Part shown: piece by piece, positions 1-64,000 of the stretch | Layout: each line of letters begins with the position of its first letter | How positions within the stretch are numbered: position 1 is the first letter of the stretch | NCBI RefSeq assembly: GCF_964355755.1 | Contig: NC_092677.1 | Span: forward strand, 21,625,175-21,689,174 | Reading direction: 5' to 3' | DNA: 64,000 bases | Source of the DNA: Antedon mediterranea | Taxonomy: Eukaryota > Animalia > Echinodermata | Notes under the pieces: generated by a model | What the model was told of the DNA's origin: nothing | Database searches by the model: none | What the model saw: only the letters and a program-made list of their open reading frames with translations | Position numbers and translations under genes: made by a program

Positions 1-879
1 TGAAGAGCTGATAATAGTCTATTTATATGAAATGGATGATCAACCAATGAAAAATAATGCCATGCAACTTTGTTTCTGATTTTAAAAAAGGTCCACTTGT
101 TTAGGCCTGACATTTACAACCCTCAAAATATCTCACTTTCAAAAACAATATTTATTTTCAATTAAAAAAAAAAAAAATCCCTAGAGGTTCGAACCCACTA
201 CTGAAAGCACTCAAACCTGAGCATTATCCGTTACGCCACAAACCAGTAGATGACTGCGGAGCTGATAATAGTCCATTTATATGAAATGAATGATCAATCA
301 ATGAAAAATAATGCCATGCAACTTTGTTTCTGATTTTAAAAAAGGTCCACTTGTTTAGGCCTGACATTTACAACCCTCAAAATATCTCGCTTTCAAAAAC
401 AATATTTATTTTCAATTAAAAAAAAAAGAAAAAAAATATTAGTAGAGGTTCGAACCCACTACTGCGAGAACTCAAACCTGAGCACTACCGGTTACGCCAC
501 AAACCAGTAGATGACTGAAGAGCTGATAACAGTCTATTTATATGAAATGAATGATCCATCTATGTAAAATGATGTTATGCAACTTTGTTTCTGATTTTTA
601 AAAAAGGTCTACTTGTTTAGGCCTGACATTTACAACCCTCAAAATATCTCACTTTCAAAAACCATATTTATTTTCAATTTAAAAAAAAAAGTATCCCTAG
701 AGGTTCGACCCACTACTCAGAGCACTCAAACCTGAGCATTACTCGTTACGCCACAAACCAGTAGATAACTGAAGAGCTGATAATAGTCTATTTATATGGA
801 ATTAATGATCAATCAATGAAAAATAATGCCATGCAACTTTGTTTCTGATTTTAAAAAAGGTCCACTTGTTTAGGCCTGA

Positions 880-3800
880 CATTTACAACCCTCAAAATAT
901 CTCACTTTCAAAAACAATATTTTTTTCAATAAAAAAAAAAAAAAAAAAATATTCGTGGAGGTTCGAACCCACTACTGCGAGAACTCAAACCTGAGCATTA
1001 CCCGATACGCCTCAAACCAGTAGATGACTGAAGAGCTGATAATACTCTATTTATATGAAATTAATAATAAATCAATGAAAAATAATGCCATGCAACTTTG
1101 TTTCTGATTTTAAAAAAGGTTCACTTGTTTAGGCCTGACATTTACAACCCTCAAAATATCTCACTTTCAAAAACAATATTTATTTTAAATAAAAAAAAGA
1201 AAGAAACAAAATATCCCTAGAGGTTCGACCCACAACTCAGAGCACTCAAACCTGAGCATAACCCTTTACGCCACAAACCAGTAGATGACTGAAGAGCTGA
1301 TAATAGTCTATTTATATGAAATCAATGATCAATCAATGAAAAATAATGCAATGCAACTTTGTTTCTGATTTTAAAAAATATCCATTTGTTTAGGCCTGAC
1401 ATTCACAACCCTAAAAAATATCTCATTTTCAAAAAAAATATTTATTTTCAATAAGAAAAAAAAAAGCAATATCCCTAGAGGTTCGAACCCACTACTGCGA
1501 GAACTCAAACCTGAGCATTACCCGTTACGCCTCAAACCAGTAGATGACTGAAGAGCTGATAATACTCTATTTATATGAAATTAATAATAAATCAATGAAA
1601 AATAATGCCATGCAACTTTGTTTCTGATTTTAAAAAAAGTTCACTTGTTTAGGCCTGACATTTACAACCCTCAAAATATCTCACTTTCAAAAACAATATT
1701 TATTTTAAATAAAAAAAAAAAAAGAAACAAAATATCCGTAGAGGATCGAACCCACTAGTGAGAGCACTCAAACTTGAGCATTACCCGTTACGCCTCAAAC
1801 CAGTAGATGACTGAAGAGCTGCTAATACTCTATTTATATGAAATAAATAATAAATCAATGAAAAATAATGCCATGCAACTTTGTTTCTGATTTTAAAAAA
1901 GGTCCACTTGTTTAGGCCTGACATTTACAACCCTCAAAATATCTCACTTTCAAAAACAATATTTATTTTCAATAAAAAAAAAAAAAAAAAAAAAAATATT
2001 CGTAGAGGTTCGAACCCACTACTGCGAGAACTCAAACCTGAGCATTACCCGTTACGCCTCAAACCAGTAGATGACTGAAGAGCTGATAATACTCTATTTA
2101 TATGAAATTAATAATAAATCAATGAAAAATAATGCCATGCAACTTTGTTTCTGATTTTAAAAAAGGTTCACTTGTTTAGGCCTGACATTTACAACCCTCA
2201 AAATATCTCACTTTCAAAAACAATATTTATTTTAAATAAAAAAAAAAAGAAACAAAATATCCGTAGAGGATCGAACCCACTAGTGAGAGCACTCAAACTT
2301 GAGCATTACCCGTTACGCCACAAACCAGTAGATGACTGAAGAGCTGATAATACTCTATTTATATGAAATAAATAATAAATCAATGAAAAATAATGCCATG
2401 CAACTTTGTTTCTGATTTTAAAAAAGGTCCACTTGTTTAGGCCTGACATTTACAACCCTCAAAATATCTCACTTTCAAAAACAATATTTATTTTCAATAA
2501 AAAAAAAAAAAAAAAAATATTCGTAGAGGTTCGAACCCACTACTGCGAGAACTCAAACCTGAGCATTACCCGTTACGCCTCAAACCAGTAGATGACTGAA
2601 GAGCTGATAATACTCTATTTATATGAAATTAATAATAAATCAATGAAAAATAATGCAATGCAACTTTGTTTCTGATTATAAAAAAGGTTCATTTGTTTAG
2701 GCCTGTCATTTACAACCCTCAAAATATCTCACTTTCAAAAACAATATTTTTTTCAATAAAAAAAAAAAAAAAAAAATATTCGTGGAGGTTCGAACCCACT
2801 ACTGCGAGAACTCAAACCTGAGCATTACCCGATACGCCTCAAACCAGTAGATGACTGAAGAGCTGATAATACTCTATTTATATGAAATTAATAATAAATC
2901 AATGAAAAATAATGCCATGCAACTTTGTTTCTGATTTTAAAAAAGGTTCACTTGTTTAGGCCTGACATTTACAACCCTCAAAATATCTCACTTTCAAAAA
3001 CAATATTTATTTTAAATAAAAAAAAGAAAGAAACAAAATATCCCTAGAGGTTCGACCCACAACTCAGAGCACTCAAACCTGAGCATTACCCGTTACGCCA
3101 CAAACCAGTAGATGACTGAAGAGCTGATAATAGTCTATTTATATGAAATCAATGATCAATCAATGAAAAATAATGCAATGCAACTTTGTTTCTGATTTTA
3201 AAAAATATCCATTTGTTTAGGCCTGACATTCACAACCCTAAAAAATATCTCATTTTCAAAAAAAATATTTATTTTCAATAAGAAAAAAAAAAGCAATATC
3301 CCTAGAGGTTCGAACCCACTACTGCGAGAACTCAAACCTGAGCATTACCCGTTACGCCTCAAACCAGTAGATGACTGAAGAGCTGATAATACTCTATTTA
3401 TATGAAATTAATAATAAATCAATGAAAAATAATGCCATGCAACTTTGTTTCTGATTTTAAAAAAAGTTCACTTGTTTAGGCCTGACATTTACAACCCTCA
3501 AAATATCTCACTTTCAAAAACAATATTTATTTTAAATAAAAAAAAAAAAGAAACAAAATATCCGTAGAGGATCGAACCCACTAGTGAGAGCACTCAAACT
3601 TGAGCATTACCCGTTACGCCTCAAACCAGTAGATGACTGAAGAGCTGCTAATACTCTATTTATATGAAATAAATAATAAATCAATGAAAAATAATGCCAT
3701 GCAACTTTGTTTCTGATTTTAAAAAAGGTCCACTTGTTTAGGCCTGACATTTACAACCCTCAAAATATCTCACTTTCAAAAACAATATTTATTTTCAATA

Positions 3801-4570
3801 AAAAAAAAAAAAAAAAAAAAAATATTCGTAGAGGTTCGAACCCACTACTGCGAGAACTCAAACCTGAGCATTACCCGTTACGCCTCAAACCAGTAGATGA
3901 CTGAAGAGCTGATAATACTCTATTTATATGAAATTAATAATAAATCAATGAAAAATAATGCCATGCAACTTTGTTTCTGATTTTAAAAAAGGTTCACTTG
4001 TTTAGGCCTGACATTTACAACCCTCAAAATATCTCACTTTCAAAAACAATATTTATTTTAAATAAAAAAAAAAAGAAACAAAATATCCGTAGAGGATCGA
4101 ACCCACTAGTGAGAGCACTCAAACTTGAGCATTACCCGTTACGCCACAAACCAGTAGATGACTGAAGAGCTGATAATACTCTATTTATATGAAATAAATA
4201 ATAAATCAATGAAAAATAATGCCATGCAACTTTGTTTCTGATTTTAAAAAAGGTCCACTTGTTTAGGCCTGACATTTACAACCCTCAAAATATCTCACTT
4301 TCAAAAACAATATTTATTTTCAATAAAAAAAAAAAAAAAAAAATATTCGTAGAGGTTCGAACCCACTACTGCGAGAACTCAAACCTGAGCATTACCCGTT
4401 ACGCCTCAAACCAGTAGATGACTGAAGAGCTGATAATACTCTATTTATATGAAATTAATAATAAATCAATGAAAAATAATGCAATGCAACTTTGTTTCTG
4501 ATTATAAAAAAGGTTCATTTGTTTAGGCCTGTCATTTACAACCCTCAAAATATCTCACTTTCAAAAACAA
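880..4570. repeat. Recent tandem duplication of a 7-monomer block (period 1826 bp)
   Basis: Identical ORF artefacts are offset by exactly 1826 (1881/3707, 2145/3971, 2406/4232). Rare SNPs recur at about the same offset (CGTGGAGG at ~954/2781; GATTATAAAA at ~2674/4500). Confidence 0.9.
1974..2102 (-). ncRNA. Representative putative Pol III tRNA-like transcription unit within the satellite monomer (repeated in essentially every monomer)
   Basis: Minus strand: TATAAATA (2102-2095), A-box-like AGGCGTAACGG (2059-2049; TGGCGTAACGG in other variants), B box GGTTCGAACC (2016-2007), then a T-run (1996-1974). There are 45 nt from the A-box start to the TTC of the B box, matching tRNA positions 8-53. 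Transcription is inferred, not shown. Confidence 0.6.
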
Positions 4571-7500
4571 TATTTATTTTAAATAAAAAAAAAAAAAGAA
4601 ACAAAATATCCGTAGAGGATCGAACCCACTAGTGAGAGCACTCATACTTGAGCATTACCCGTTACGCCTCAAACCAGTAGATGACTGAAGAGCTGCTAAT
4701 ACTCTATTTATATGAAATAAATAATAAATCAATGAAAAATAATGCCATGCAACTTTGTTTCTGATTTTAAAAAAGGTCCACTTGTTTAGGCCTGACATTT
4801 ACAACCCTCAAAATATCTCACTTTCAAAAACAATATTTATTTTCAATAAAAAAAAAAAAAAAAAATATTCGTAGAGGTTCGAACCCACTACTGCGAGAAC
4901 TCAAACCTGAGCATTACCCGTTACGCCTCAAACCAGTAGATGACTGAAGAGCTGATAATACTCTATTTATATGAAATTAATAATAAATCAATGAAAAATA
5001 ATGCCATGCAACTTTGTTTCTGATTTTAAAAAAGGTCCACTTGTTTAGGCCTGACATTTACAACCCTCAAAATATCTCGCTTTCAAAAACAATATTTATT
5101 TTCAATTAAAAAAAAAAGAAAAAAAAAATATTAGTAGAGGTTCGAACCCACTACTGCGAGAACTCAAACCTGAGCACTACCGGTTACGCCACAAACCAGT
5201 AGATGACTGAAGAGCTGATAACAGTCTATTTATATGAAATGAATGATCCATCAATGTAAAATGATGTTATGCAACTTTGTTTCTGATTTTTAAAAAAGGT
5301 CCACTTGTTTAGGCCTGACATTTACAACCCTCAAAATATCTCACTTTCAAAAACAATATTTATTTTCAATTTTAAAAAAAAAGAAAAAAAGTATCCCTAG
5401 AGGTTCGACCCACTACTCAGAGCACTCAAACCTGAGCATTACTCGTTACGCCACAAACCAGTAGATAACTGAAGAGCTGATAATAGTCTATTTATATGGA
5501 ATTAATGATCAATCAGTGAAAAATAATGCCATGCAACTTTGTTTCTGATTTTAAAAAAGGTCCACTTGTTTAGGCCTGACATTTACAACCCTCAAAATAT
5601 CTCACTTTCAAAAACAATATTTTTTTCAATAAAAAAAAAAAAAAAAAAAATATTCGTGGAGGTTCGAACCCACTACTGCGAGAACTCAAACCTGAGCATT
5701 ACCCGATACGCCTCAAACCAGTAGATGACTGAAGAGCTGATAATACTCTATTTATATGAAATTAATAATAAATCAATGAAAAATAATGCCATGCAACTTT
5801 GTTTCTGATTTTAAAAAAGGTTCACTTGTTTAGGCCTGACATTTACAACCCTCAAAATATCTCACTTTCAAAAACAATATTTATTTTAAATAAAAAAAAA
5901 GAAAGAAACAAAATATCCCTAGAGGTTCGACCCACTACTCAGAGCACTCAAACCTGAGCATTACCCGTTACGCCACAAACCAGTAGATGACTGAAGAGTT
6001 GATAATAGTCTATTTATATGAAATGAATGATCAATCAATGAAAAATAATGCCATGCAACTTTGTTTCTGATTTTAAAAAATATCCATTTGTTTAGGCCTG
6101 ACATTCACAACCCTAAAAAATATCTCATTTTCAAAAAAAATATTTATTTTCAATAAGAAAAAAAAAAGCAATATCCCTAGAGGTTCGAACCCACTACTGC
6201 GAGAACTCAAACCTGAGCATTACCCGTCACGCCTCAAACCAGTAGATGACTGAAGAGCTGATAATACTCTATTTATATGAAATTAATAATAAATCAATGA
6301 AAAATAATGCCATGCAACTTTGTTTCTGATTTTAAAAAAGGTTCACTTGTTTAGGCCTGACATTTACAACCCTCAAAATATCTCACTTTCAAAAACAATA
6401 TTTATTTTAAATAAAAAAAAAACAAAAAACAAAATATCCGTAGAGGATCGAACCCACTAGTGAGAGCACTCAAACTTGAGCATTACCCGTTACGCCTCAA
6501 ACCAGTAGATGACTGAAGAGCTGCTAATACTCTATTTATATGAAATAAATAATAAATCAATGAAAAATAATGCCATGCAACTTTGTTTCTGATTTTAAAA
6601 AAGGTCCACTTGTTTAGGCCTGACATTTACAACCCTCAAAATATCTCACTTTCAAAAACAATATTTATTTTCAATAAAAAAAAAAAAAAAAAATATTCGT
6701 AGAGGTTCGAACCCACTACTGCGAGAACTCAAACCTGAGCATTACCCGTTACGCCTCAAACCAGTAGATGACTGAAGAGCTGATAATACTCTATTTATAT
6801 GAAATTAATAATAAATCAATGAAAAATAATGCCATGCAACTTTGTTTCTGATTTTAAAAAAGGTTCACTTGTTTAAGCCTGACATTTACAACCCTCAAAA
6901 TATCTCACTTTCAAAAACAATATTTATTTTAAATAAAAAAAAAAAAAGAAACAAAATATCCGTAGAGGATCGAACCCACTAGTGAGAGCACTCAAACTTG
7001 AGCATTACCCGTTACGCCACAAACCAGTAGATGACTGAAGAGCTGATAATACTCTATTTATATGAAATAAATAATAAATCAATGAAAAATAATGCCATGC
7101 AACTTTGTTTCTGATTTTAAAAAAGGTCCACTTGTTTAGGCCTGACATTTACAACCCTCAAAATATCTCACTTTCAAAAACAATATTTATTTTCAATAAA
7201 AAAAAAAAAAAAAAAAAAAATATTCGTAGAGGTTCGAACCCACTACTGCGAGAACTCAAACCTGAGCATTACCCGTTACGCCTCAAACCAGTAGATGACT
7301 GAAGAGCTGATAATACTCTATTTATATGAAATTAATAATAAATCAATGAAAAATAATGCAATTCAACTTTGTTTCTGATTTTAAAAAAGGTTCATTTGTT
7401 TAGGCCTGTCATTTACAACCCTCAAAATATCTCACTTTCAAAAACAATATTTATTTTAAATAAAAAAAAAGAAAAGAAACAAAGTATCCGTAGAGGATCG

Positions 7501-10500
7501 AACCCACTAGTGAGAGCACTCATACTTGAGCATTACCCGTTACGCCTCAAACCAGTAGATGACTGAAGAGCTGCTAATACTCTATTTATATGAAATAAAT
7601 AATAAATCAATGAAAAATAATGCCATGCAACTTTGTTTCTGATTTTAAAAAAGGTCCACTTGTTTAGGCCTGACATTTACAACCCTCAAAATATCTCACT
7701 TTCAAAAACAATATTTATTTTCAATAAAAAAAAAAAAAAAATATTCGTAGAGGTTCGAACCCACTACTGCGAGAACTCAAACCTGAGCATTACCCGTTAC
7801 GCCTCAAACCAGTAGATGACTGAAGAGCTGATAATACTCTATTTATATGAAATTAATAATAAATCAATGAAAAATAATGCCATGCAACTTTGTTTCTGAT
7901 TTTAAAAAAGGTCCACTTGTTTAGGCCTGATATTTACAACCCTCAAAATATCTCGCTTTCAAAAACAATATTTATTTTCAATTAAAAAAAAAAGAAAAAA
8001 AATATTAGTAGAGGTTCGAACCCACTACTGCGAGAACTCAAACCTGAGCACTACCGGTTACGCCACAAACCAGTAGATGACTGAAGAGCTGATAACAGTC
8101 TATTTATATGAAATGAATGATCCATCAATGTAAAATGATGTTATGCAACTTTGTTTCTGATTTTTAAAAAAGGTCCACTTGTTTAGGCCTGACATTTACA
8201 ACCCTCAAAATATCTCACTTTCAAAAACAATATTTATTTTAAATAAAAAAAAAAAAAGAAACAAAATATCCGTAGAGGATCGAACCCACTAGTGAGAGCA
8301 CTCAAACTTGAGCATTACCCGTTACGCCACAAACCAGTAGATGACTGAAGAGCTGATAATACTCTATTTATATGAAATAAATAATAAATCAATGAAAAAT
8401 AATGCCATGCAACTTTGTTTCTGATTTTAAAAAAGGTCCACTTGTTTAGGCCTGACATTTATTACCCTCAAAATATCTCACTTTCAAAAAAAATATTTAT
8501 TTTCAATAAAAAAAAAAAAAAAAAAATATTCGTAGAGGTTCGAACCCACTACTGCGAGAACTCAAACCTGAGCATTACCCGTTACGCCTCAAACCAGTAG
8601 ATGACTGAAGAGCTGATAATACTCTATTTATATGAAATTAATAATAAATCAATGAAAAATAATGCAATGCAACTTTGTTTCTGATTTTAAAAAAGGTTCA
8701 TTTGTTTAGGCCTGTCATTTACAACCCTCAAAATATCTCACTTTCAAAAACAATATTTATTTTAAATAAAAAAAAAAAAACAAACAAAATATCCGTAGAG
8801 GATCGAACCCACTAGTGAGAGCACTCATACTTGAGCATTACCCGTTACGCCTCAAACCAGTAGATGACTGAAGAGCTGATAATAGTCTATTTTATATGAA
8901 ATGAATGATCAATCAATGAAAAATAATGCCATGCAACTTTGTTTCTGATTTTAAAAAAGGTCCACTTGTTTAGGCCTGACATTTACAACCCTCAAAATAT
9001 CTCACTTTCAAAAACAATATTTATTTTAAAATAAAAAAAAAAAAAAAATATTCGTAGAGGTTCGAACCCACTACTGCGAGAACTCAAACCTGAGCATTAC
9101 CCGTTACGTCTCAAACCAGTAGATGACTGAAGAGCTGATAATACTCTATTTATATGAAATTAATAATAAATCAATGAAAAATAATGCCATGCAACATTGT
9201 TTCTGATTTTAAAAAAGGTTCACTTGTTTAGGCCTGACTTTTACAACCCTCAAAATATCTCACTTTCAAAAACAATATTTATTTTAAATAAAAAAAAAAA
9301 AGAAACAAAATATCCGTAGAGGATCGAACCCACTAGTGAGAGCACTCAAACTTGAGCATTACCCGTTACGCCACAAACCAGTAGATGACTGAAGAGCTGA
9401 TAATACTCTATTTATATGAAATAAATAATAAATCAATGAAAAATAATGCCATGCAACTTTGTTTCTGATTTTAAAAAAGGTCCACTTGTTTAGGCCTGAC
9501 ATTTACAACCCTCAAAATATCTCACTTTCAAAAACAATATTTATTTTCAATAAAAAAAAAAAAAAAAAAAATATTCGTAGAGGTTCGAACCCACTACTGC
9601 GAGAACTCAAACCTGAGCATTACCCGTTACGCCTCAAACCAGTAGATGACTGAAGAGCTGATAATACTCTATTTATATGAAATTAATAATAAATCAATGA
9701 AAAATAATGCAATGCAACTTTGTTTCTGATTTTAAAAAAGGTTCATTTGTTTAGGCCTGTCATTTACAACCCTCAAAATATCTCACCTTCAAAAAAAATA
9801 TTTATTTTCAATAAAAAAAAAAATAGAAAAGAAATATCCCTAGAGGTTCGAACCCACTACTGCGAGCACTCAAACTTGAGCATTACCCGTTACGCCTCAA
9901 ACCAGTAGATGACTGAAGTGCTGATAATACTCTATTTATATGAAATGAATAATAAATCAATGAAAAATAATGCCATGCAACTTTGTTTCTGATTTTAAAA
10001 AAGGTTCCCTTGTTTAGGCCTGACATTTACAACCCTCAAAATATCTCACCTTCAAAAACAATATTTATTTTCAAATAAAAAAAAAAGAAAAAAAATATCC
10101 CTAGAAGTTCGAACCCACTATTGAAATCACTCAAACCTGAGCATTAACCGTTCGCCGCAAACCATTTTATGACTGAAGAGCTGCTAATAGTCTATTAATA
10201 TGAAATGGATGATCAATCAATGAAAAATAATGCCATGCAACTTTGTTTCTGATTTTAAAAAAGGTTCACTTGTTTAGGCCTGACAGTTGCAACCCTCAAA
10301 ATATCTCACTTTCAAAAACAATATTTATTTTCAATTAAAAAAAAAAGAAAAAAAAATACCCGTATAGGTTCGAACCCACTACTGAGGGCACTCAAACCTG
10401 AGCATTACACGTTACGCCACAAACCAGTAGATGACTGAGGAGCTGATAATAGTCTATATATATGAAATGAATGAACAATCAATGAAAAATAATGCCATGC

Positions 10501-13500
10501 AACTTTGTTTCTGATTGAAAAAAATGTTCACTTGTTTAGGCCTGACATTTACAAACCTCAAAATATCTCACTTTCAAAAACAATATTTATTTTCAAATAA
10601 AAAAAAAAAAAAAAAATATCCCTAGAAGTTCGAACCCACTATTGAAATCACTCAAAACTGAGCATTACCCGTTACGCCGCAAACCAGTATATAACTGAAG
10701 AGCTGATAATAGTCTATTTATATGAAATGGATGATCAACCAATGAAAAATAATGCCATGCAACTTTGTTTCTGATTTTAAAAAAGGTCCACTTGTTTAGG
10801 CCTGACATTTACAACCCTCAAAATATCTCACTTTCAAAAACAATATTTATTTTCAATTTAAAAAAAAAAAATCCCTAGAGGTTCGAACCCACTACTGAAA
10901 ACACTCAAACCTGAGCATTATCCGTTACGCCACAAACCAGTAGATGACTGCGGAGCTGATAATAGTCCATTTATATGAAATGAATGATCAATCAATGAAA
11001 AATAATGCCATGCAACTTTGTTTCTGATTTTAAAAAAGGTCCACTTGTTTAGGCCTGACATTTACAACCCTCAAAATATCTCACTTTCAAAAACAATATT
11101 TATTTTCAATAAAAAAAAAAAAAAAAAAAATATTCGTAGAGGTTCGAACCCACTACTGCGAGAACTCAAACCTGAGCATTACCCGTTACGCCTCAAACCA
11201 GTAGATGACTGAAGAGCTGATAATACTCTATTTATATGAAATTAATAATAAATCAATGAAAAATAATGCCATGCAACTTTGTTTCTGATTTTAAAAAAGG
11301 TCCACTTGTTTAGGCCTGACATTTACAACCCTCAAAATATCTCACTTTCAAAAACAATATTTATTTTCAATAAAAAAAAAAAAAAAAAAAATATTCGTAG
11401 AGGTTCGAACCCACTACTGCGAGAACTCAAACCTGAGCATTACCCGTTACGCCTCAAACCAGTAGATGACTGAAGAGCTGATAATACTCTATTTATATGA
11501 AATTAATAATAAATCTATGAAAAATAATGCCATGCAACTTTGTTTCTGATTTTAAAAAAGGTTCACTTGTTTAGGCCTGACATTTACAACCCTCAAAATA
11601 TCTCACTTTCAAAAACAATATTTATTTTAAATAAAAAAAAAAAAAGAAACAAAATATCCGTAGAGGATCGAACCCACTAGTGAGAGCACTCAAACTTGAG
11701 CATTACCCGTTACGCCACAAACCAGTAGATGACTGAAGAGCTGATAATACTCTATTTATATGAAATAAATAATAAATCAATGAAAAATAATGCCATGCAA
11801 CTTTGTTTCTGATTTTAAAAAAGGTCCACTTGTTTAGGCCTGACATTTACAACCCTCAAAATATCTCACTTTCAAAAACAATATTTATTTTCAATAAAAA
11901 AAAAAAAAAAAAAATATTCGTAGAGGTTCGAACCCACTACTGCGAGAACTCAAACCTGAGCATTACCCGTTACGCCTCAAACCAGTAGATGACTGAAGAG
12001 CTGATAATACTCTATTTATATGAAATTAATAATAAATCAATGAAAAATAATGCAATGCAACTTTGTTTCTGATTTTAAAAAAGGTTCATTTGTTTAGGCC
12101 TGTCATTTACAACCCTCAAAATATCTCACCTTCAAAAAAAATATTTATTTTCAATAAAAAAAAAAAGAAAAGAAATATCCCTAGAGGCTCGAACCCACTA
12201 CTGCGAGCACTCAAACTTGAGCATTACCCGTTATGCCTCAGACCAGTAGATGACTGAAGAGCTGATAATACTCTATTTATATGAAATAAATAATAAATCA
12301 ATCAAAAATAATGCCATGCAACTTTGTTTCTGATTTTAAAAAAGGTTCACTTGTTTAGGCCTGACATTTACAACCCTAAAAATATCTCACCTTCAAAAAC
12401 AATATTTATTTTCAAATAAAAAAAAAAGAAAAAAAATATCCCTAGAAGTTCGAACCCACTATTGAAATCACTCAAACCTGAGCATTAACCGTTCGCCGCA
12501 AACCATTTTATGACTGAAGAGCTGATAATAGTCTATTAATATGAAATGGATGATCAATCAATGAAAAATAATGCCATGCAACTTTGTTTCTGATTTTTAA
12601 AAAGGTTCACTTGTTTAGGCCTGACAGTTGCAACCCTAAAAATATCTCACTTTCAAAAACAATATTTATTTTCAATTAAAAAAAAAAGAAAAAAAAATAC
12701 CCGTATAGGTTCGAACCCACTACTGAGAGCACTCAAACCTGAGCATTACACGTTACGCCACAAACCAGTAGATGACTGAGGAGCTGATAATAGTCTATAT
12801 ATATGAAATAAATGATCAATCAATGAAAAATAATGCCATGCAACTTTGTTTCTGATTGAAAAAAATGTTCACTTGTTTAGGCCTGACATTTACAACCCTC
12901 AAAATATCTCACTTTCAAAAACAATATTTATTTTCAAATAAAAAAAAAAAAAAAAAATATCCCTAGAAGTTCGAACCCACTATTGAAATTACTCAAAACT
13001 GAGCATTACCCGTTACGCCGCAAACCAGTATATAACTGAAGAGCTGATAATAGTCTATTTATATGAAATGGATGATCAACCAATGAAAAATAATGCCATG
13101 CAACTTTGTTTCTGATTTTAAAAAAGGTTCACTTGTTTAGGCCTGACATTTACAACCCTAAAAATATCTCACTTTCAAAAACAATATTTATTTTCAATTT
13201 AAAAAAGAAAATCCCTAGAGGTTCGAACCCACTACTGAGAGAACTCAAACCTGAGCATTATCCGTTACGCCACCAACCAGTAGGTGACTGAGGAGCTGAT
13301 AATAGTCTATTTATATGAAATAAATGATCAATCAATGAAAAATAATGCCATGCAACTTTGTTTCTGATTTTAAAAAAGGTTCACTTGTTTTGGCCTGACA
13401 TTTACAACCCTCAAAATATCTCACTTTCAAAAACAATATTTTTTCAATTAAAAAAAAAAAAGAAATAAAATATCAGTAGAGGTTCGAACCCTCTATTGAA

Positions 13501-48716: not shown

Positions 48717-48878
48717 ACAAATAATGAATGTTTATGAGTGTAATGGTACAAATAATGGCACTTGGTGAATGATGAAAGGTTATATCAACGAGGCAAAGCC
48801 GAGTTGATATAACCTTTCATCATTCACCAAGTGCCATTATTTGTACCATTACACGAATACAAAACATTCATTATTTGT
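48717..48878. repeat. Long inverted repeat / hairpin
   Basis: Perfect 52-bp arms (48738-48789 and 48803-48854) around GAGGCAAAGCCGA, plus 17-bp outer arms (48717-48733 and 48862-48878). Confidence 0.97.
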
Positions 48879-49083
48879 TTTATATAACATCTAAATAAAT
48901 TCTAGTTATTTGAATCAAATAAAAGGTAGCCCTAACCAAAGCTTACTACATTTCATTCACACACATTTGATTAAAAACAGTAACATTTGGTTTTTAATAA
49001 TGTTATATTAAATGTTATATTTATATGGATTTCGTAAACACACCTACTTTTGTGTTAATTATGTCAACAAACGACCAAACAAT

Positions 49084-49183
49084 CCTAGGCCTAGCAAGGC
49101 TAAAACGCCTAGGCTAGGCCTAGCCTAATACTAGCATGGCCTAAGGCTAGGCCTAGACCTAGTAGCCTAGTACTAGCTTGGCT
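49084..49183. repeat. Low-complexity cluster of CTAG/TAGGCCTA palindromic motifs
   Basis: Sequence reads CCTAGGCCTAGC...GCCTAGGCTAGGCCTAGCCTA...GGCTAGGCCTAGACCTAGTAGCCTAGTACTAGC. Confidence 0.85.
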
Positions 49184-49795
49184 GAAAGGCAAAACATCGA
49201 CAGACAATTGGAACTTATCTAAGCTAATTATGGTTTTTCCAACAATTCCACGTCTTGTAGGGATGTCCCCATTAATTAATCAAAATCCTAAAAACGATCT
49301 AAAGCTAATTTAAATGCCTTTTTACAAAGGTGGCGCTGTTGTATTTCACAGTACATAGCCATATCATAGGATAATTTGTGTACTAGATTTTTTTTCATCC
49401 GCGAGACGATTTTTTTTCGTACACAAAAATGTTTCAAAAAGTACTATTTAACGATCGTTGAATAGTGCGTACTATTGCACGCCATGTGACCCACAATCAT
49501 CCAATCAAATGACAGGAATTTATTTAGGTGTTATATAAAACCATATAACTACATAACGCTGTGGTGTGTGTCACACATTGTGGCTTCTTAATTAAACAAA
49601 TTAATTAACAAAAAATTAAAAATCCGGCTCTATAGATTTGAGAACATGTCCCTGTAGTATATTCATGCCAAATCCCAGCTCAATACTACAACGAATAAGG
49701 GAGGAGTAGTACTTTAAAAATCGCACTTTTTACTCAATAGTGTCCAGATGGTGGAGGAGAAAATGAGTAAGTACTAGACTCGGGTACCCCGAGTA

Positions 49796-52700: not shown

Positions 52701-55700
52701 GCCTGACAGTTGCAACCCTCAAAATATCTCACTTTCAAAAACAATATTTATTTTCAATTAAAAAAAAAATATCCTTACAGGTTGGAACCCGCTACTGAGA
52801 GCACTCAAACCTGGGTATTACCCGTTACGCCACAAACCAGTAGATAACTGAAGAGCTGATAATAGTCTATTTATATGAAATTAATGATCAATCAATGAAA
52901 AATAATGCCATGCAACTTTGTTTCTGATTTTAAAAAAGGTTCACTTGTTTAGGCCTGACATTTACAACCCTCAAAATATCTCACTTTCAAAAACAATATT
53001 ATTTTCAATTAAAAAAAAGAAAGAAACAAAATATCAGTAGAGGTTCGAACCCACTAGTGAGAGCACTCAAACTTGAGCATTACCCGTTACGCCACAAACC
53101 ATTAGATGACTGAAGAGCTGATAATACTCTATTTATATGAAATAAATAATAAATCAATGAAAAATAATGCCATGCAACTTTGTTTCTGATTTTAAAAAAA
53201 GTCCACTTGTTTAGGCCTGACATTTACAACCCTCAAAATATCTCACTTTCAAAAACCATATTTATTTTCAATTTAAAAAAAAAAAGAAAAAAAATATCCC
53301 TAGAGGTTCGACCCACTACTCAGAGCACTCAAACCTGAGCATTACCCGTTACGCCACAAACCAGTAGATGACTGAAGAGCTGATAATAGTCTATTTATAT
53401 GAAATGAATTATCAATCAATGAAAAATAATGCCATGCAACTTTGTTTCTGATTTTAAAAAAGGTCCACTTGTTTAGGCCTGACATTTACAACCCTCAAAA
53501 TATCTCACTTTCAAAAACCATATTTATTTTCAATTGAAAAAAAAAAGAAAAAAAATATCCCTAGAGGTTCGACCCACTACTCAGAGCACTTAAAACTGAG
53601 CATTACTCGTTACGCCACAAACCAGTAGATGACTGAAGAGCTGATGTTTGTTTCTGATTTTAAAAAAGGTCCACTTGTTTAGGCCTGACATTTACAACCC
53701 TCAAAATATCTCACTTTGAAAAAAAATATTTATTTTCAATTAAAAAAAAAAAGAAGAAATATCCCTAGAGGTTCGAACCCACTACTGCGAGCACTCAAAC
53801 TTGAGCAATACTCGTTATGCCTCAAACCAGTAGATGACTGAAGAGCTGATAATACTCTATTTATATTGAATGAATAATAAATCAATGAAATTTAAAAAAA
53901 AAGGTTCACTTGTTTACAACCCTCAAAATATCTCACTTTCAAAAACAATATTTATTTTCAAATAAAAAAAAATTTAAAAAAAAATACCCGTATAGGTTCG
54001 AACCCACTACTGAGAGCACTCAAACCTGAGCACTACCCGTTACGCCACAAACCAGAAGATGACTGAGGAGCTGATAATAGTCTATATATATGAAATGAAT
54101 CATCAATCAATGAAAAATAATGCCATGCAACTTTGTTTCTGATTGAAAAAAATGTTCACTTGTTTAGGCCTGATATTTACAACCCTCAAAATATCACACT
54201 TTCAAAAACAATATTTATTTTCAAATAAAAAAAAAATATCCTTACAGGTTGGAACCCGCTACTGAGAGCACTCAAACCTGCGTATTACCCGTTACGCCAC
54301 AAACCAGTAGATAACTGAAGAGCTGATAATAGTCTATTTATATGAAATTAATGATCAATCAATGAAAAATAATGCCATGCAACTTTGTTTCTGATTTAAA
54401 AAAAGATCCATTTGTTTAGGCCTGACATTCACAACCCTCAAAATATCTCACTTTCAAAAACAATATTATTTTCAATAAAAAAAAAACAAAATACAAAATA
54501 TCCGTAGAGGTTCGAACCCACTAGTGAGAGCACTCAAACTTGAGCATTACCCGTTACGCAACAAACCAGTAGATGACTGAAGAGCTGATAATACTCTATT
54601 TATATGAAATTAATGATCAATCAATGAAAAATAATGCCATGCAACTTTGTTTCTGATTTTAAAAAAGGTTCATTTGTTTAGGCCTGACATTTACAACCCT
54701 CAAAATATCTCACTTTCAATAAAAATATTTATTTTCAATTAAAAAAAAAAGAAATAACCCTAGAGGTTCGAACCCACTACTGCGAGCACTCAAACTTGAG
54801 CATTACTCGTTACGCCTCAAACCAGTAGATGACTGAAGAGCTGATAATACTCTATTTATATGAAATGAATAATAAATCAATGAAAAATAATGCCATGCAA
54901 CTTTGTTTCTGATTTTAAAAAAGATCCATTTGTTTAGGCCTGACATTCACAACCCTAAAAAATATCTCATTTTCCCAAAAAATATTTATTTTCAATAAGA
55001 AAAAAAAAAGCAATATCCCTAGAGGTTGGAACCCGCTACTGAGAGCACTCAAACCTGGGTATTACCCGTTACGCCACAAACCAGTAGATACCTGAAGAGC
55101 TGATAATAGTCTATTTATATGAAATTAATGATCAATCAATGAAAAATAATGCCATGCAACTTTGTTTCTGATTTTAAAAAAGGTTCACTTGTTTAGGCCT
55201 GACATTTACAACCCTCAAAATATCTCACTTTCAAAAACAATATTTATTTTCAATAAAAAAAAAAAAAAAAAAAAATATTCGTAGAGGTTCGAACCACTAC
55301 TGCGAGAACTCAAACCTGAGCATTACCCGTTACGCCACAAACCAGTAGATGACTGAAGAGCTGATAATAGTCTATTTATATGAAATGAATAATAAATCAG
55401 TGAAAAATAATGCCATGCAACTTTGTTTCTGATTTAAAAAAAGGTTCACTTGTTTAGGCCTTACATTTACAACCCTAAAAATATCTCACTTTCAAAAACA
55501 ATATTTATTTTCAATTTAAAAAAAAAAATCCCTAGAGGTTCGAACCCACTACTGAGAGAACTCAAACCTGAGCATTATCCGTTACGCCACCAACCAGTAG
55601 GTGACTGAGGAGCTGATAATAGTCTATTTATATGAAATAAATGATCAATCAATGAAAAATAATGCCATGCAACTTTGTTTCTGATTTTAAAAAAGGTTCA

Positions 55701-58700
55701 CTTGTTTTGGCCTGACATTTACAACCCTCAAAATATCTCACTTTCAAAAACAATATTTTTTCAATTAAAAAAAAAAAGAAATAAAATATCAGTAGAGGTT
55801 TGAACCCACTAGTGAGAGCACTCAAACTTGAGCATTACCCGCTACGCCACAAACCAGTAGATGACTGAAGAGCTGATAATACTCTATTTATATGAAATAA
55901 ATAATAAATCAATGAAAAATAATGCCATGCAACGTTGTTTCTGATTTTAAAAAAGGTTCATTTGTTTAGGCCTGTCATTTACAACCCTCAAAATATCTCA
56001 CCTTAAAAAAAAATATTTATTTTCAATAAAAAAAAAAAGAAAAGAAATATCCCTAGAGGTTCGAACCCACTACTGCGAGAACTCAAACTTGAGCATTACC
56101 CGTTACGCCTCAAACCAGTAGATGACTGAAGAGCTGATAATACTCTATTTATATGAAATGAATAATAAATCAATGAAAAATAATGCCATGCAACTTTGTT
56201 TCTGATTTTAAAAAAGGTTCACTTGTTTAGGCCTGACATTTACAACCCTCAAAATATCTCACCTTCAAAAACAATATTTATTTTCAAATAAAAAAAAAAG
56301 AAAAAAAATATCCCTAGAAGTTCGAACCCACTATTGAAATCACTCAAACCTGAGCATTAACCGTTCGCCGCAAACCATTTTATGACTGAAGAACTGATAA
56401 TAGTCTATTTATATGAAATGGATGATCAATCAATGAAAAATAATGCCATGCAACTTTGTTTCTGATCTTAAAAAAGGTTCACTTGTTTAGGCCTGACATT
56501 TACAACCCTCAAAATATCTCAATTTCAAAAACAATATTTATTTTAAATAAAAAAAAAAAGAAACAAAATATCCGTAGAGGTTCGAACCCACTAGTGAGAG
56601 CACTCAAACTTGAGCATTACCCGTTACGCCACAAACCAGTAGATGACTGAAGAGCTGACAATACTCTATTTATATGAAATGAATGATCAATCAATGAAAA
56701 ATAATGCCATGCAACTTTGTTTCTGATTTTAAAAAAGGTCCACTTGTTTAGGCCTGTCATTTACAACCCTCAAAATATCTCACCTTCAAAAAAAATATTT
56801 ATTTTCAATAAAAAAAAAAAAGAAAAGAAATATCCCTAGAGGTTCGAACCCACTACTGCGAGCACTCAAACTTGAGCATTACCCGTTACGCCTCAAACCA
56901 GTAGATGACTGAAGAGCTGATAATACTCTATTTATATGAAATGAATAATAAATCAATGAAAAATAATGCCATGCAACTTTGTTTCTGATTTAAAAAAAGG
57001 TTCACTTGTTTAGGCCTGACATTTACAACCCTCAAAATATCTCACTTTCAAAAACAATATTTATTTTAAATAAAAAAAAAAAAGAAACAAAATATCCGTA
57101 GAGGATCGAACCCACTAGTGAGATCACTCAAACTTGAGCATTACCCGTTACGCCACAAACCAGTAGATGACTGAAGAGCTGATAATACTCTATTTATATG
57201 AAATAAATAATAAATCAATGAAAAATAATGCCATGCAACTTTGTTTCTGATTTTAAAAAAGGTCCACTTGTTTAGGCCTGACATTTACAACCCTCAAAAT
57301 ATCTCACTTTCAAAAACAATATTTATTTTCAATAAAAAAAAAAAAAAAAAAAATATTCGTAGAGGTTCGAACCCACTACTGCGAGAACTCAAACCTGAGC
57401 ATTACCCGTTACGCCTCAAACCAGTAGATGACTGAAGAGCTGATAATACTCTATTTATATGAAATTAATAATAAATCAATGAAAAATAATGCAATGCAAC
57501 TTTGTTTCTGATTTTAAAAAAGGTTCATTTGTTTAGGCCTGTCATTTACAACCCTCAAAATATCTCACCTTCAAAAAAAATATTTATTTTCAATAAAAAA
57601 AAAAGAAAAGAAATATCCCTAGAGGTTCGAACCCACTACTGCGAGCACTCAAACTTGAGCATTACCCGTTACGCCTCAAACCAGTAGATGACTGAAGAGC
57701 TGATAATACTCTATTTATATGAAATGAATAATAAATCAATGAAAAATAATGCCATGCAACTTTGTTTCTGATTTTAAAAAAGGTTCACTTGTTTAGGCCT
57801 GACATTTACAACCCTCAAAATATCTCACCTTCAAAAACAATATTTATTTTCAAATAAAAAAAAAAAGAAAAAAAATATCCCTAGAAGTTCGAACCCACTA
57901 TTGAAATCACTCAAACCTGAGCATTAACCGTTCGCCGCAAACCATTTTATGACTGAAGAGCTGCTAATAGTCTATTAATATGAAATGGATGATCAATCAA
58001 TGAAAAATAATGCCATGCAACTTTGTTTCTGATTTTAAAAAAGGTTCACTTGTTTAGGCCTGACAGTTGCAACCCTCAAAATATCTCACTTTCAAAAACA
58101 ATATTTATTTTCAATTAAAAAAAAAAGAAAAAAAAAATACCCGTATAGGTTCGAACCCACTACTGTGAGCACTCAAACCTGAGCATTACACGTTACGCCA
58201 CAAACCAGTAGATGACTGAGGAGCTGATAATAGTCTATATATATGAGATGAATGATCAATCAATGAAAAATAATGCCATGTAACTTTGTTTCTGATTGAA
58301 AAAAATGTTCACTTGTTTAGGCCTGACATTTACAACCCTCAAAATATCTCACTTTCAAAAACAATATTTATTTTCAAATAAAAAAAAAAAAAAAAAATAT
58401 CCCTAGAAGTTCGAACCCACTATTGAAATCACTCAAAACTGAGCATTACCCGTTACGCCGCAAACCAGTATATAACTGAAGAGCTGATAATAGTCTATTT
58501 ATATGAAATGGATGATCAACCAATGAAAAATAATGCCATGCAACTTTGTTTCTGATTTTAAAAAAGGTCCACTTGTTTAGGCCTGACATTTACAACCCTC
58601 AAAATATCTCACTTTCAAAAACAATATTTATTTTCAATTTAAAAAAAAAAAATCCCTAGAGGTTCGAACCCACTACTGAAAGCACTCAAACCTGAGCATT

Positions 58701-61700
58701 ATCCGTTACGCCACAAACCAGTAGATGACTGCGGAGCTGATAACAGTCTATTTATATGAAATGAATGATCCATCAATGTAAAATGATGTTATGCAAATTT
58801 GTTTCTGATTTTTAAAAAAGGTTCACTTGGTTAGGCTTGACATTTAAAACCCTCAAAATATCTCACTTTCAAAAACCATATTTATTTTCAATTTAAAAAA
58901 AAGAAAAAAAATATCCCTTGAGGTTCGACCCACTCCTCACAGCACTCAAACCTGAGCATTACCCGCTACGCCACAAACCAGTAGATGACTGAAGAGCTGA
59001 TAATAGTCTATTTATATGAAATGAATTATCAATCAATGAAAAATAATGCCATGCAACTTTGTTTCTGATTTTAAAAAAGGTCCACTTGTTTAGGCCTGAC
59101 ATTTACAACCCTCAAAATATCTCCCTTTCAAAAACCATATTTATTTTCAATTTAAAAAAAAAAGAAAAAAAATATCCCTAGAGGTTCGACCCACTACTCA
59201 GAGCACTCAAAATTGAGCATTACCCGTTACGCCACAAACCAGTAGATGACTGAAGAGCTGATAATAGTCTATTTATATGAAATGAATGATCAATCAATGA
59301 AAAATAATGCCATGCAACTTTGTTTCTGATTTAAAAAAAGGTTCACTTGTTTAGGCCTGACATTTACAACCCTAAAAATATCTCACTTTCAAAAACAATA
59401 TTTATTTTCAATTTAAAAAAAAAAATCCCTAGAGGTTCGAACCCACTACTGAGAGAACTCAAACCTGAGCATTATCCGTTACGCCACCAACCAGTAGGTG
59501 ACTGAGGAGCTGATAATAGTCTATTTATATGAAATAAATGATCAATCAATGAAAAATAATGCCATGCAACTTTGTTTCTGATTTTAAAAAAGGTTCACTT
59601 GTTTTGGCCTGACATTTACAACCCTCAAAATATCTCACTTTCAAAAACAATATTTTTTCAATTAAAAAAAAAAGAAATAAAATATCAGTAGAGGTTTGAA
59701 CCCACTAGTGAGAGCACTCAAACTTGAGCATTACCCGCTACGCCACAAACCAGTAGATGACTGAAGAGCTGATAATACTCTATTTATATGAAATAAATAA
59801 TAAATCAATGAAAAATAATGCCATGCAACTTTGTTTCTGATTTTAAAAAAGGTTCATTTGTTTAGGCCTGTCATTTACAACCCTCAAAATATCTCACCTT
59901 AAAAAAAATATTTATTTTCAATAAAAAAAAAAGAAAAGAAATATCCCTAGAGGTTCGAACCCATTACTGCGAGCACTCACACTTGAGCATTACCCGTTAC
60001 GCCTCAAACCAGTAGATGACTGAAGAGCTGATAATACTCTATTTATATGAAATGAATAATAAATCAATGAAAAATAATGCCATGCAACTTTGTTTCTGAT
60101 TTTAAAAAAGGTTCACTTGTTTAGGCCTGACATTTACAACCCTCAAAATATCTCACCTTCAAAAACAATATTTATTTTCAAATAAAAAAAAAAGAAAAAA
60201 AATATCCCTAGAAGTTCGAACCCACTATTGAAATCACTCAAACCTGAGCATTAACCGTTCGCCGCAAACCATTTTATGACTGAAGAGCTGATAATAGTCT
60301 ATTTATATGAAATGGATGATCAATCAATGAAAAATAATGCCATGCAACTTTGTTTCTGATTTTAAAAAAGGTTCACTTGTTTAGGCCTGACATTTACAAC
60401 CCTCAAAATATCTCAATTTCAAAAACAATATTTATTTTAAATAAAAAAAAAAAAGAAACAAAATATCCGTAGAGGTTCGAACCCACTAGTGAGAGCACTC
60501 AAACTTGAGCATTACCCGTTACGCCACAAACCAGTAGATGACTGAAGAGCTGACAATACTCTATTTATATGAAATGAATGATCAATCAATGAAAAATAAT
60601 GCCATGCAACTTTGTTTCTGATTTTAAAAAAGGTCCACTTGTTTAGGCCTGACATTTACAACCCTCAAAATATCTCACTTTCAAAAACAATATTTATTTT
60701 CAATAAAAAAAAAAAAAAAAAAAAAAATATTCGTAGAGGTTCGAACCCACTACTGCGAGAACTCAAACCTGAGCATTACCCGTTACGCCTCAAACCAGTA
60801 GATGACTGAAGAGCTGACAATACTCTATTTATATGAAATGAATGATCAATCAATGAAAAATAATGCCATGCAACTTTGTTTCTGATTTTAAAAAAGGTCC
60901 ACTTGTTTAGGCCTGACATTTACAACCCTCAAAATATCTCACCTTCAAAAAAAATATTTATTTTCAATAAAAAAAAAAAAGAAAAGAAATATCCCTAGAG
61001 GTTCGAACCCACTACTGCGAGCACTCAAACTTGAGCATTACCCGTTACGCCTCAAACCAGTAGATGACTGAAGAGCTGATAATACTCTATTTATATGAAA
61101 TGAATAATAAATCAATGAAAAATAATGCCATGCAACTTTGTTTCTGATTTTAAAAAAGGTTCACTTGTTTAGGCCTGACATTTACAACCCTCAAAATATC
61201 TCACCTTCAAAAAAAATATTTATTTTCAATAAAAAAAAAAAAGAAAAGAAATATCCCTAGAGGTTCGAACCCACTACTGCGAGCACTCAAACTTGAGCAT
61301 TACCCGTTACGCCTCAAACCAGTAGATGACTGAAGAGCTGATAATACTCTATTTATATGAAATGAATAATAAATCAATGAAAAATAATGCCATGCAACTT
61401 TGTTTCTGATTTTAAAAAAGGTTCACTTGTTTAGGCCTGACATTTACAACCCTCAAAATATCTCACCTTCAAAAACAATATTTATTTTCAAATAAAAAAA
61501 AAAGAAAAAAAATATCCCTAGAAGTTCGAACCCACTATTGAAATCACTCAAAACTGAGCATTACCCGTTACGCCGCAAACCAGTATATAACTGAAGAGCT
61601 GATAATAGTCTATTTATATGAAATGGATGATCAACCAATGAAAAATAATGCCATGCAACTTTGTTTCTGATTTTAAAAAAGGTCCACTTGTTTAGGCCTG

Positions 61701-64000
61701 ACATTTACAACCCTCAAAATATCTCACTTTCAAAAACAATATTTATTTTCAATTTAAAAAAAAAAAAATCCCTAGAGGTTCGGACCCACTACTGAAAGCA
61801 CTCAAACCTGAGCATTATCCGTTACGCCACAAACCAGTAGATGACTGCGGAGCTGATAATAGTCCATTTATATGAAATGAATGATCAATCAATGAAAAAT
61901 AATGCCATGCAACTTTGTTTCTGATTTTAAAAAAGGTCCACTTGTTTAGGCCTGACATTTACAACCCTCAAAATATCTCGCTTTCAAAAACAATATTTAT
62001 TTTCAATTAAAAAAAAAAGAAAAAAAATATTAGTAGAGGTTCGAACCAACTACTGCGAGAACTCAAACCTGAGCACTACCGGTTACGCCACAAACCAGTA
62101 GATGACTGAAGAGCTGATAATACTCTATTTATATGAAATTAATAATAAATCAATGAAAAATAATGACATGCAACTTTGTTTCTGATTTTAAAAAAGGTTC
62201 ACTTGTTTAGGCCTGACATTTACAACCCTCAAAATATCTCACTTTCAAAAACAATATTTATTTTAAATAAAAAAAAAAAAGAAACAAAATATCCCTAGAG
62301 GTTCGACCCACTACTCAGAGCACTCAAACCTGAGCATTACCCGTTACGCCACAAACCAGTAGATGACTGAAGAGCTGATAATAGTCTATTTATATGAAAT
62401 GAATGATCAATCAATGAAAAATAATGCCATGCAACTTTGTTTCTGATTTTAAAAAATATCCATTTGTTTAGGCCTGACATTCACAACCCTAAAAAATATC
62501 TCATTTTCAAAAAAAATATTTATTTTCAATAAGAAAAAAAAAAGCAATATCCCTAGAGGTTCGAACCCACTACTGCGAGAACTCAAACCTGAGCATTACC
62601 CGTTACGCCTCAAACCAGTAGATGACTGAAGAGCTGATAATACTCTATTTATATGAAATTAATAATAAATCAATGAAAAATAATGCCATGCAACTTTGTT
62701 TCTGATTTTAAAAAAGGTTCACTTGTTTAGGCCTGACATTTACAACCCTCAAAATATCTCACTTTCAAAAACAATATTTATATTAAATAAAAAAAAAAAG
62801 AAACAAAATATCCGTAGAGGATCGAACCCACTAGTGAGAGCACTCAAACTTGAGCATTACCCGTTACGCCTCAAACCAGTAGATGACTGAAGAGCTGCTA
62901 ATACTCTATTTATATGAAATAAATAATAAATCAATGAAAAATAATGCCATGCAACTTTGTTTCTGATTTTAAAAAAGGTCCACTTGTTTAGGCCTGACAT
63001 TTACAACCCTCAAAATATCTCACTTTCAAAAACCATATTTATTTTCAATTTAAAAAAAAAAGAAAAAAATATCCCTAGAGGTTCGACCCACTACTCAGAG
63101 CACTCAAAATTGAGCATTACCCGTTACGCCACAAACCAGTAGATGACTGAAGAGCTGATAATAGTCTATTTATATGAAATGAATGATCAATCAATGAAAA
63201 ATAATGCCATGCAACTTTGTTTCTGATTTAAAAAAAGGTCCACTTGTTTAGGGCTGACATTTACAACCCTCAAACTATCTCACTTTCAAAAACCATATTT
63301 ATTTTAAATTTAAAAAAAAAAGAAAAAAAATATTCGTAGAGGTTCGAACCCACCACTGCGAGAACTCAAACCTGAGCACTACCAGTTACGCTACAAACCA
63401 GTAGATGACTGAAGAGCTGATAATAGTCTATTTATATGAAATTAATAATAAATCAATGAAAAATAATGCCATGCAACTTTCTTTCTGATTTTAAAAAAGG
63501 TTCACTTGTTTAGGCCTGACATTTACAACCCTCAAAATATCTCACTTTCAAAAACAATATTTATTTAAAAAAAAAAAAAAAAAACAAAATCTTCGTAGAG
63601 GTTCGAACCCACTAGTGAGAGAACTCAAACTTGAGCATTACCCGTTACGCCACAAACCAGTAGATGACTGAAGAGCTGATAATACTCTATTTATATGAAA
63701 TAAATAATAAATCAATGAAAAATAATGCCATGCAACTTTGTTTCTGATTTTAAAAAAGGTCCACTTGTTTAGGCCTGACATTTACAACCCTCAAAATATC
63801 TCACTTTAAAAAACCATATTTATTTTCAAATTAAAAAAAAAAGAAAAAAATATCCCTAGAGGTTCGACCCACTACTCAGAGCACTCAAAACTGAGCATTA
63901 CCCGTTACGCCACAAACCAGTAGATGACTGAAGAGCTGATAATAGTCTATTTATATGAAATGAATGATCAATCAATGAAAAATAATGCCATGCAACTTTG
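49796..64000. repeat. ~261-bp tandem satellite array, segment 3 (~54 monomers)
   Basis: Same monomer, resuming mid-monomer (AAAAATATCCATTTG) after the second insertion and running off the end of the window. Confidence 0.99.

Follow-up and report, generated by a model that had tools for sequence, protein, structure and literature searches.

Does a satellite array whose monomer looks like a complete RNA polymerase III (Pol III) gene consist of genes, of binding sites that act as DNA, or of a relic that has been multiplied passively? We met this question in a stretch of 64,000 nucleotides from the echinoderm Antedon mediterranea (NCBI RefSeq assembly GCF_964355755.1, contig NC_092677.1, positions 21,625,175 to 21,689,174 of the forward strand; hereafter the window, numbered from its first letter), in which a 261-bp satellite family carrying a tRNA-like unit fills nearly the whole length. 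The original prediction for this stretch had likened the monomer to a complete Pol III gene and had proposed an amplified small-RNA gene or a chromatin domain bound by the transcription factor TFIIIC, with a dead tRNA relic as the fallback. Our analysis makes it probable that this is a satellite with a decayed tRNA-like Pol III unit, spread by turnover that selects neither the promoter nor an RNA fold.

Monomer layout and the tRNA-like unit

Evaluating the array as a whole, we found a 261-bp period over 1-18563 and 20108-64000 with Tandem Repeats Finder (TRF), and an anchor placed inside the unit occurred 231 times on the minus strand and never on the plus strand, which bears out the predicted ~230 minus-strand tandem copies. 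By TRF and alignment the family forms three minus-strand blocks, at 1..18560 (~71 copies), 20108..47430 and 49795..64000, the last of which has, near 53440-54140, two rearranged monomers shortened by internal deletions (periods of ~206 and ~225 bp), one of them without the TATA region. The interruptions at ~18560-20107 and 47430-49794, absent from the earlier description, are copies of a cassette with tRNA-Val(AAC)-like sequences (see below). The window has a G+C content of ~31% and holds no open reading frame (ORF) of at least 80 aa, and the ends of the array lie outside it. For the monomer alignment, the minus strand was cut at 228 anchors into 227 intervals, of which the 223 measuring 230-300 bp were aligned and the four longer ones (two with insertions, two rearranged or missed-anchor stretches) were excluded. 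The aligned monomers differ on average at 17.5 of 236 columns (7.4%) and fall in 28 clusters that are intermixed along the array, with no fixed higher-order repeat found in it, just a weak enrichment at lags 7, 9, 11 and 18.

The majority consensus, read in minus-strand columns, places a TATA element (TATAAATA) at 50-57, a CA at 79-80, an A box from 93 and the G53 of a B box at 137, which is 44 nt past T8 and matches tRNA spacing, followed by a T-run from column ~156 (8-19 nt downstream of the B box). This arrangement supports reading the monomer as a putative Pol III transcription unit of type 2, preceded by a TATA. Among 20,000 dinucleotide shuffles of the consensus, the full TATA-A-B-T4 arrangement never appeared and an A box followed by a B box at 25-60 nt appeared in 4 (A alone in 1074, B alone in 1035), a result that is evidence from one monomer and not from 230 independent cases. 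The predicted geometry of TATA, A box, B box at tRNA spacing and oligo-T is therefore correct and lies far beyond chance. One near-consensus monomer with intact boxes, at 32609..32867 (minus strand, by alignment), serves as an example: pattern matches place its TATA at 32811..32818 (columns 50-57), its A box at 32765..32775 (columns 93-103) and its B box at 32723..32732 (columns 136-145). Its tRNA-like unit spans 32713..32789, giving a predicted transcript of ~77-80 nt from a start at columns 79-80, which we infer from the distance to the TATA, down to the oligo-T run at 32695..32712 (predicted Pol III terminator, ends approximate). All of these lie on the minus strand, as does the alignment-defined spacer block at 32837..32947 (columns 183-263 plus 1-31), for which near-identical contigs exist in other runs too.

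How many copies keep this layout? The strict A-box pattern is present in 105 of the 223 monomers (188 with position 8 left free) and the B-box pattern in 152, and TATA, strict A box and B box occur together in 57, or in 71 with a more flexible A-box pattern. A complete promoter in 57-71 of 223 copies contradicts the picture of a complete Pol III gene throughout ~230 copies. The exact string that had been quoted for the monomer occurs in 0 of 223 and is a composite of subfamilies; in the subfamily ending TCTACGAATA, for example, A-box position 8 is mostly A and not T. The B-box variant GGTTCGATCC, which had been called common, does exist and yet is found in 14/223 copies, fewer than the T-deleted form. 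That T deletion (35/223) is the commonest among five alleles that damage a box and recur, in 11-35 copies apiece and in 82/223 taken together, and the box-damaged copies are interspersed across the 28 clusters. Past the B box, the longest T run measures 6-25 nt in the 222 copies in which a B-like site was located.

Assessing the unit for tRNA identity, we found that ARAGORN at its normal threshold called no monomer and returned only 7 tRNA-Val copies, while Rfam at gathering score over the window returned only 5 tRNA-Val copies and no monomer, vault or hammerhead match. At E up to 10, over 1-6000, 27913-28172 and 32690-32830, Rfam gave no relevant family (RF00005 and vault included), and three weak matches of 13-16 bits, against gathering scores of 50-88, were set aside as chance. 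With the threshold lowered to 80%, ARAGORN called 119 genes, 7 of which are the tRNA-Val copies and most of the others minus-strand units with a TGA-centred loop. The 28 cluster representatives gave 26 distinct rows, in which pairing reached 98% in the D stem, 96% in a T stem of 3 pairs, 83% in what is left of the acceptor stem (rich in wobble pairs) and 67% in the anticodon stem. Because of the near-threshold ARAGORN calls and these partial cloverleaf stems, we regard the unit as a tRNA relic. This agrees with the earlier description of something tRNA-like that is not a tRNA and whose D stem can form. The accompanying statement that the acceptor and anticodon stems do not form needs amending for the acceptor, where 4-5 pairs, mostly G-U, still form as a remnant. 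An array of functional tRNA genes was rejected, as a complete cloverleaf was recognised by neither ARAGORN nor Rfam RF00005.

Origin of the unit from the neighbouring tRNA-Val found no support: a model drawn from 7 of the tRNA-Val copies in the window gives the units no more than 12 bits, and 108-122 of 2000 box-fixed shuffles of the unit align to tRNA-Val equally well. Scoring highest against this model is an 11-copy subfamily with a 12-nt A box (435-509, 5127-5201, 8001-8075, 62026-62100 and others), which may be the one closest to the ancestral tRNA. The unit may also resemble elongator-Met, Gln, Lys and Ile tRNAs and a nematode spliced leader. A 5-bp hairpin at columns 109-122 (e.g., 32746-32759), pairing GCTCA with TGAGT, has each of its pairs intact in 212-223 of the 223 copies and a variable loop; it competes with the D stem and shows no supporting compensatory changes. 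The plus strand holds a string resembling a hammerhead core, and a hammerhead-ribozyme satellite (retrozyme) was rejected, as the helices fail to close by inspection, the core differs in the loose contig ends of two other organisms (C and D, below) and Rfam finds none. The monomer consensus contains no Sm site, no motif like the cAMP response element (CRE) and no polypurine tract (PPT).

Constraint within the array and a proposed longer form of the repeat

The check that had been proposed was whether the box columns are better kept than others, and they are not: the diversity of the A+B core columns was 0.110 against 0.093 for base-matched columns, with 70% of 20,000 resamples as low or lower. 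TATA columns (0.027 against 0.047 base-matched) showed no significant difference. The unit as a whole was the more diverse part of the monomer, at 0.106 compared with 0.056-0.063 in the flanking regions and 0.076 in base-matched columns (p ~0.03 for higher, the columns not being independent), and 99 variant alleles fall in its 75 columns against 154 in the 161 others. Transcription-associated mutagenesis, with the expectation taken from PMC6130373, was rejected as the cause of this higher diversity, since the RNA-like strand shows no C>T excess (0.60 per C in the unit against 0.63 outside, at low power); G>A on the same strand was 0.74 in the unit and 0.62 outside. Neither did a stable or conserved fold emerge, as four units gave four folds (z -1.2 to +0.1) and covariation over the 26 distinct rows was equalled in 242 of 500 shuffles, with an RNAalifold covariation term of -0.24. 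There is no sign of selection on the RNA or the promoter within the array. Maintenance of the array as a family of functional small-RNA genes or as a TFIIIC domain finds no support, since the boxes are no better conserved and box-damaged subfamilies have been amplified and interspersed; best fitted to these data is the fallback of a passively amplified tRNA relic.

We then considered the same repeat in other organisms, comparing 7 of the 18 runs that contain it, all as contigs, which are uninformative on transcript start, end, strand and level; the first contig comparison excluded 27913-28025 (downstream spacer). None of the 18 runs is listed as RNA (for X5 this is a guess), a blank that says nothing about expression. 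Summed depths, very high in X8 and X5, give no copy number and do not rank the parts, and carry no weight here. Only organisms A and C are counted as species, B, D and E being of low depth and possibly carry-over of A- or C-like DNA; aquatic-metagenome rows with the repeat had small shares, and no habitat is claimed from them. Organism C is a distinct holder of the repeat because its letter departs from that of the array at column 82 in 152,488 of 152,637 covering depth, and at column 36 as well. Contigs of X8 (organism C), X18 and X6 bridge the tandem monomer junction with its T-run, and the tandem arrangement is therefore shared with organism C, which makes at least one related species that has it. 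In the organism C contigs, no other letter reaches 10% or more within the spacer block (32833-32947), all listed differences lying in 32745-32832. Two of the listed unit differences are peculiar to the reference copy, which leaves one fixed and three polymorphic positions in the unit against none in the spacer, and this cross-species contrast gives no reason to think the unit better conserved.

Junction types other than the tandem one occur as well, and contigs of X5 and X16 cover upstream or spacer sequence besides the unit. At about column 31, the spacer block runs into AAATAGAC and on into different sequence in X5, X8, X16, X17 and X18, while upstream of the TATA the loose ends continue as different sequence beginning CGTGTATT (plus strand). 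The spacer and unit parts are linked in one X5 contig (record 11, 322 nt). Together these suggest a longer repeat made of an upstream flank, TATA, unit, T-run, spacer block, a second AAATAGAC and further sequence. The second sequence past AAATAGAC at the 32837 junction, visible over 30 letters, may be a second gene body or a linker of the long form. In the upstream flank, TGACGTAA stands at about -59/-52 in X18 (positions by arithmetic) and TTACGTA(A) at about -44 in X8, X18 and X6; X5, X16 and X17 show only 8 upstream letters, too few for a flank motif to be read. As described in PMC7279448, TGACGTAA is given at -50/-43 for human 7SL-3, and the pairing of a CRE with a TATA-like box is characteristic of 7SL, vault, EBER and 4.5S genes, not tRNA genes or short interspersed element (SINE) copies. 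A CRE-like 8-mer turned up by chance in 402 of 200,000 random 30-mers, for a motif picked after being seen. CRE-like motifs are absent from the monomer consensus and from the array of the window, and some other loose ends of organism C have broken B boxes. The long form is the best lead towards a real RNA gene: the idea of a small-RNA gene, not borne out for the array, is kept alive for its ancestor by the CRE-like upstream motif.

Weighing the explanations

In the explanation we prefer, the unit would descend from a tRNA gene, and the 261-bp monomer would have been cut from the longer repeat by the joining of two short direct repeats beginning AAATAGAC. The monomer would thereby have kept its TATA and lost the upstream ATF/CRE-like element, after which the subfamilies would have arisen and become mixed through unequal exchange. 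Copies with intact boxes, a quarter to half of the total, would bind TFIIIC and TFIIIB and, if the chromatin were open, could give an RNA of ~80 nt, a by-product without conserved structure. Judged from their promoters, transcription of the promoter-complete copies (57-71/223) is possible. Like the start site, both this transcription and the origin from the long form are what we infer.

Several observations weigh against a turnover that is blind to the promoter. The TATA is intact in 200/223 copies, and both boxes are kept in 121/223 if A-box position 8 is left free. In six runs (X5, X8, X17, X16, X18, X6) the edge of homology is the first base of the TATA, and contigs of organisms C and D keep the B box behind insertions of several bases between hairpin and box; homology that stops at the TATA, together with a B box kept behind insertions, is what promoter selection would leave. 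The tests themselves have limits. The within-array test is limited in power because weak per-copy selection in a redundant family resembles neutrality, its column statistics treat columns that are not independent and subfamilies that recombination mixes, and the cross-species contrast is small because two of its differences are peculiar to the reference copy. The long form, in turn, is known from loose ends of at most 30 letters plus one bridging contig.

One alternative is a functional multicopy Pol III RNA family of the 4.5SH/snaR type, in which the long form and the intact copies would make a useful RNA of 80-90 nt and the damaged copies would be tolerated pseudogenes, an explanation that we hold to be doubtful. 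It would account for the hybrid promoter with a TATA at about -30, for a homology edge between short and long forms at the TATA, and for a long-form 8-mer identical to the human 7SL-3 CRE in X18 (with TTACGTA(A) in X8, X18 and X6), given that a CRE-TATA layout is typical of 7SL, vault, EBER and 4.5S genes by the account in PMC7279448, that such an 8-mer is rare among random 30-mers (402/200,000, post hoc choice of motif) and that 4.5SH and snaR genes are tandem too (PMC10137851, PMC3045588, as described there). Set against this are the missing fold and covariation, a unit more variable than its spacer, the absence of the CRE-like motif from the window monomer, the organism C loose ends with broken B boxes, the lack of any Rfam family at E up to 10, and a repeat of 261 bp where 4.5SH repeats are given as 4-5 kb (PMC10137851). 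A related and bolder claim we consider unlikely. On it, the long form, seen in organisms A, C and other runs, would be a tRNA-derived Pol III gene for a small RNA so far undescribed, with a promoter of the 7SL/vault/4.5SH type (CRE-TATA-A-B), and would exist in a very large number of tandem copies in a group of related species; the satellite would be its promoter-truncated offshoot, still in transition from gene array to satellite and with a third of the copies transcribable.

The two remaining explanations give the boxes another role. It strikes us as improbable that a mobile element has the monomer as its repeat unit, be it a Helenus-type miniature long terminal repeat (LTR) element in tandem or, with the monomer as internal repeat, a Helentron, with boxes that serve transposition: Helenus LTRs are described as carrying tRNA-like A and B boxes, with one family in tandem arrays (PMC10886601), the long form could be an LTR plus internal part and Helentron-like cassettes do lie inside the array, but Helentron-type inverted repeats are confined to those cassettes. 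The four minus-strand TGG sites likewise speak against it, three lying inside the unit and one before an AT-rich run unlike a tRNA 3' end, as do the absence of any minus-strand purine run of at least 8 and plus-strand purine runs without TG after them. We see very little prospect that the array acts as DNA, its dense B boxes binding TFIIIC without transcription to form a boundary or anchoring domain. TFIIIC-bound B-box boundaries exist in yeasts, the B-box pattern recurs in 152/223 copies at one per 261 bp, and the tRNA-Val pseudogenes inside the array have B boxes in the same orientation. This is countered by B-box columns that are no better kept than others, by the B-box T deletion (35/223) being the commonest damage, and by the absence of any marked boundary position within the window.

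Inserted cassettes and comparable systems

The two interruptions of the array are copies of one cassette with Helentron/HINE-like ends. The first, 1.55 kb long at 18560..20107 (minus strand), carries four degenerate minus-strand copies of tRNA-Val(AAC) at 18972-19045, 19256-19328, 19486-19559 and 19772-19846. The second, at 47430..49794 (minus strand), matches it at 97.8% over 1312 bp, contains a nested element and has its tRNA-Val-like copies, also on the minus strand, at 47839-47913, 48126-48198, 48349-48422 and 48635-48707. These genes, four per cassette and of two alternating types, are oriented as the satellite units are and have mostly mispaired stems; the best formed, at 48349-48422 (Rfam 47.4 bits, full acceptor stem, one T-stem mismatch), could be the least decayed. 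Both cassettes sit at the same T-run site of the monomer. On the simplest reading, one insertion was later duplicated together with the array, and the tRNA sequences would therefore have been captured and passively amplified at the locus.

The cassette ends consist of an 11-bp subterminal inverted repeat (with one mismatch in the 3' repeat of the second cassette), a palindrome at the 5' end and, on the 3' side, a short hairpin. Subterminal inverted repeats, a 3' hairpin and a T-rich target are all features of HINEs as described in PMC4067079, and the likeness to these HINE/DINE-1 non-autonomous Helentrons extends to the 11-bp length of the inverted repeats, the palindromic 5' repeat, insertion in a T-run and internal repeats. 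The cassette differs in carrying tRNA-Val pseudogenes, in a 3' repeat placed ~28 nt from the end compared with 38-60 bp in mite HINEs (PMC4067079, as given there), and in having no autonomous partner in the window (no ORF of at least 80 aa). The nested element of the second cassette, ~830 bp at about 48713-49535, lies just upstream of a tRNA-Val copy and comprises a 37-bp inverted repeat pair (49505-49541 with 48877-48913) and a 176-bp near-palindrome at 48710-48885 plus a CTAGG-rich simple repeat. Near its 3' end each cassette has a perfect CRE palindrome (18606-18613 and 47472-47479).

Where does the array stand among described repeats? Pattern scans for it gave no match in metagenome contigs, viral contigs or prokaryote genomes, and a literature search made without the species name, so that a description may exist, found no publication on the 261-bp repeat. 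As described in PMC10702118, PolIII/TAN of the newt Cynops is a tRNA-like satellite of ~360 nt that is transcribed in vitro, and Rana/polIII (~250 nt) and the Xenopus OAX / satellite I and Hy/polIII repeats are of the same kind. Amphibian Pol III satellites are transcribed in vitro or in oocytes. Judged by its tandem arrangement and its tRNA-like unit, the array belongs with such tRNA-derived Pol III satellites (PolIII/TAN, Rana/polIII, OAX). It shares with them a short tandem monomer, one tRNA-like unit with boxes, no known matching SINE and a very high copy number, and its period is nearly that of Rana/polIII (by the account in PMC10702118). Compared by description, the array monomer differs in its canonical TATA at about -30, its long oligo-T and its longer sister form with a CRE-like motif.

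Likeness to other systems is more partial. The rodent 4.5SH and ape snaR genes also stand in tandem and are transcribed by Pol III, with A and B boxes plus a TATA-like element at about -31/-24 (PMC10137851, PMC7279448, PMC3045588, as described), and in 4.5SH a CRE lies near -50 (PMC7279448), a feature that the long form here also seems to show. Those genes derive from 7SL via B1 or Alu, occupy repeats several kb long and make RNAs that have been demonstrated, by the same accounts, whereas the array, which we know from its sequence, has a period of 261 bp, derives from a tRNA, lacks the CRE and has many damaged boxes. Of the hallmarks of the 4.5SH/snaR/7SL/vault type, the monomer thus shows the TATA at about -30, the A and B boxes and the oligo-T, and it shows neither an ATF/CRE near -50 nor an RNA sequence or fold conserved above the flanks. 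A vault RNA was rejected: Rfam matched none, whether at gathering score across the window or with E up to 10 across the three stretches searched. Helenus / TRIMp3 elements (PMC10886601, as described) are similar in a tRNA-like sequence reduced to A and B boxes and, for one family, in tandem arrays; they differ in that no primer-binding site (PBS), PPT or LTR ends were found in the monomer, and identity with them was rejected for want of a PBS or PPT in the consensus (the PBS judged by composition, without a tRNA library).

If the array is ordinary, it is one more tRNA-derived satellite, of a kind described mostly from amphibians. Such arrays inflate the annotation of tRNAs and small RNAs. Because its intact and damaged subfamilies are interleaved and can be told apart by sequence, this one is also a clean case for how genomes handle hundreds to thousands of satellite Pol III promoters. 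Should the long form prove to be a real gene driven by a CRE-TATA-A-B promoter, it would add a 4.5SH-type multicopy small RNA to those known, and the path by which a gene becomes a satellite would lie in view.

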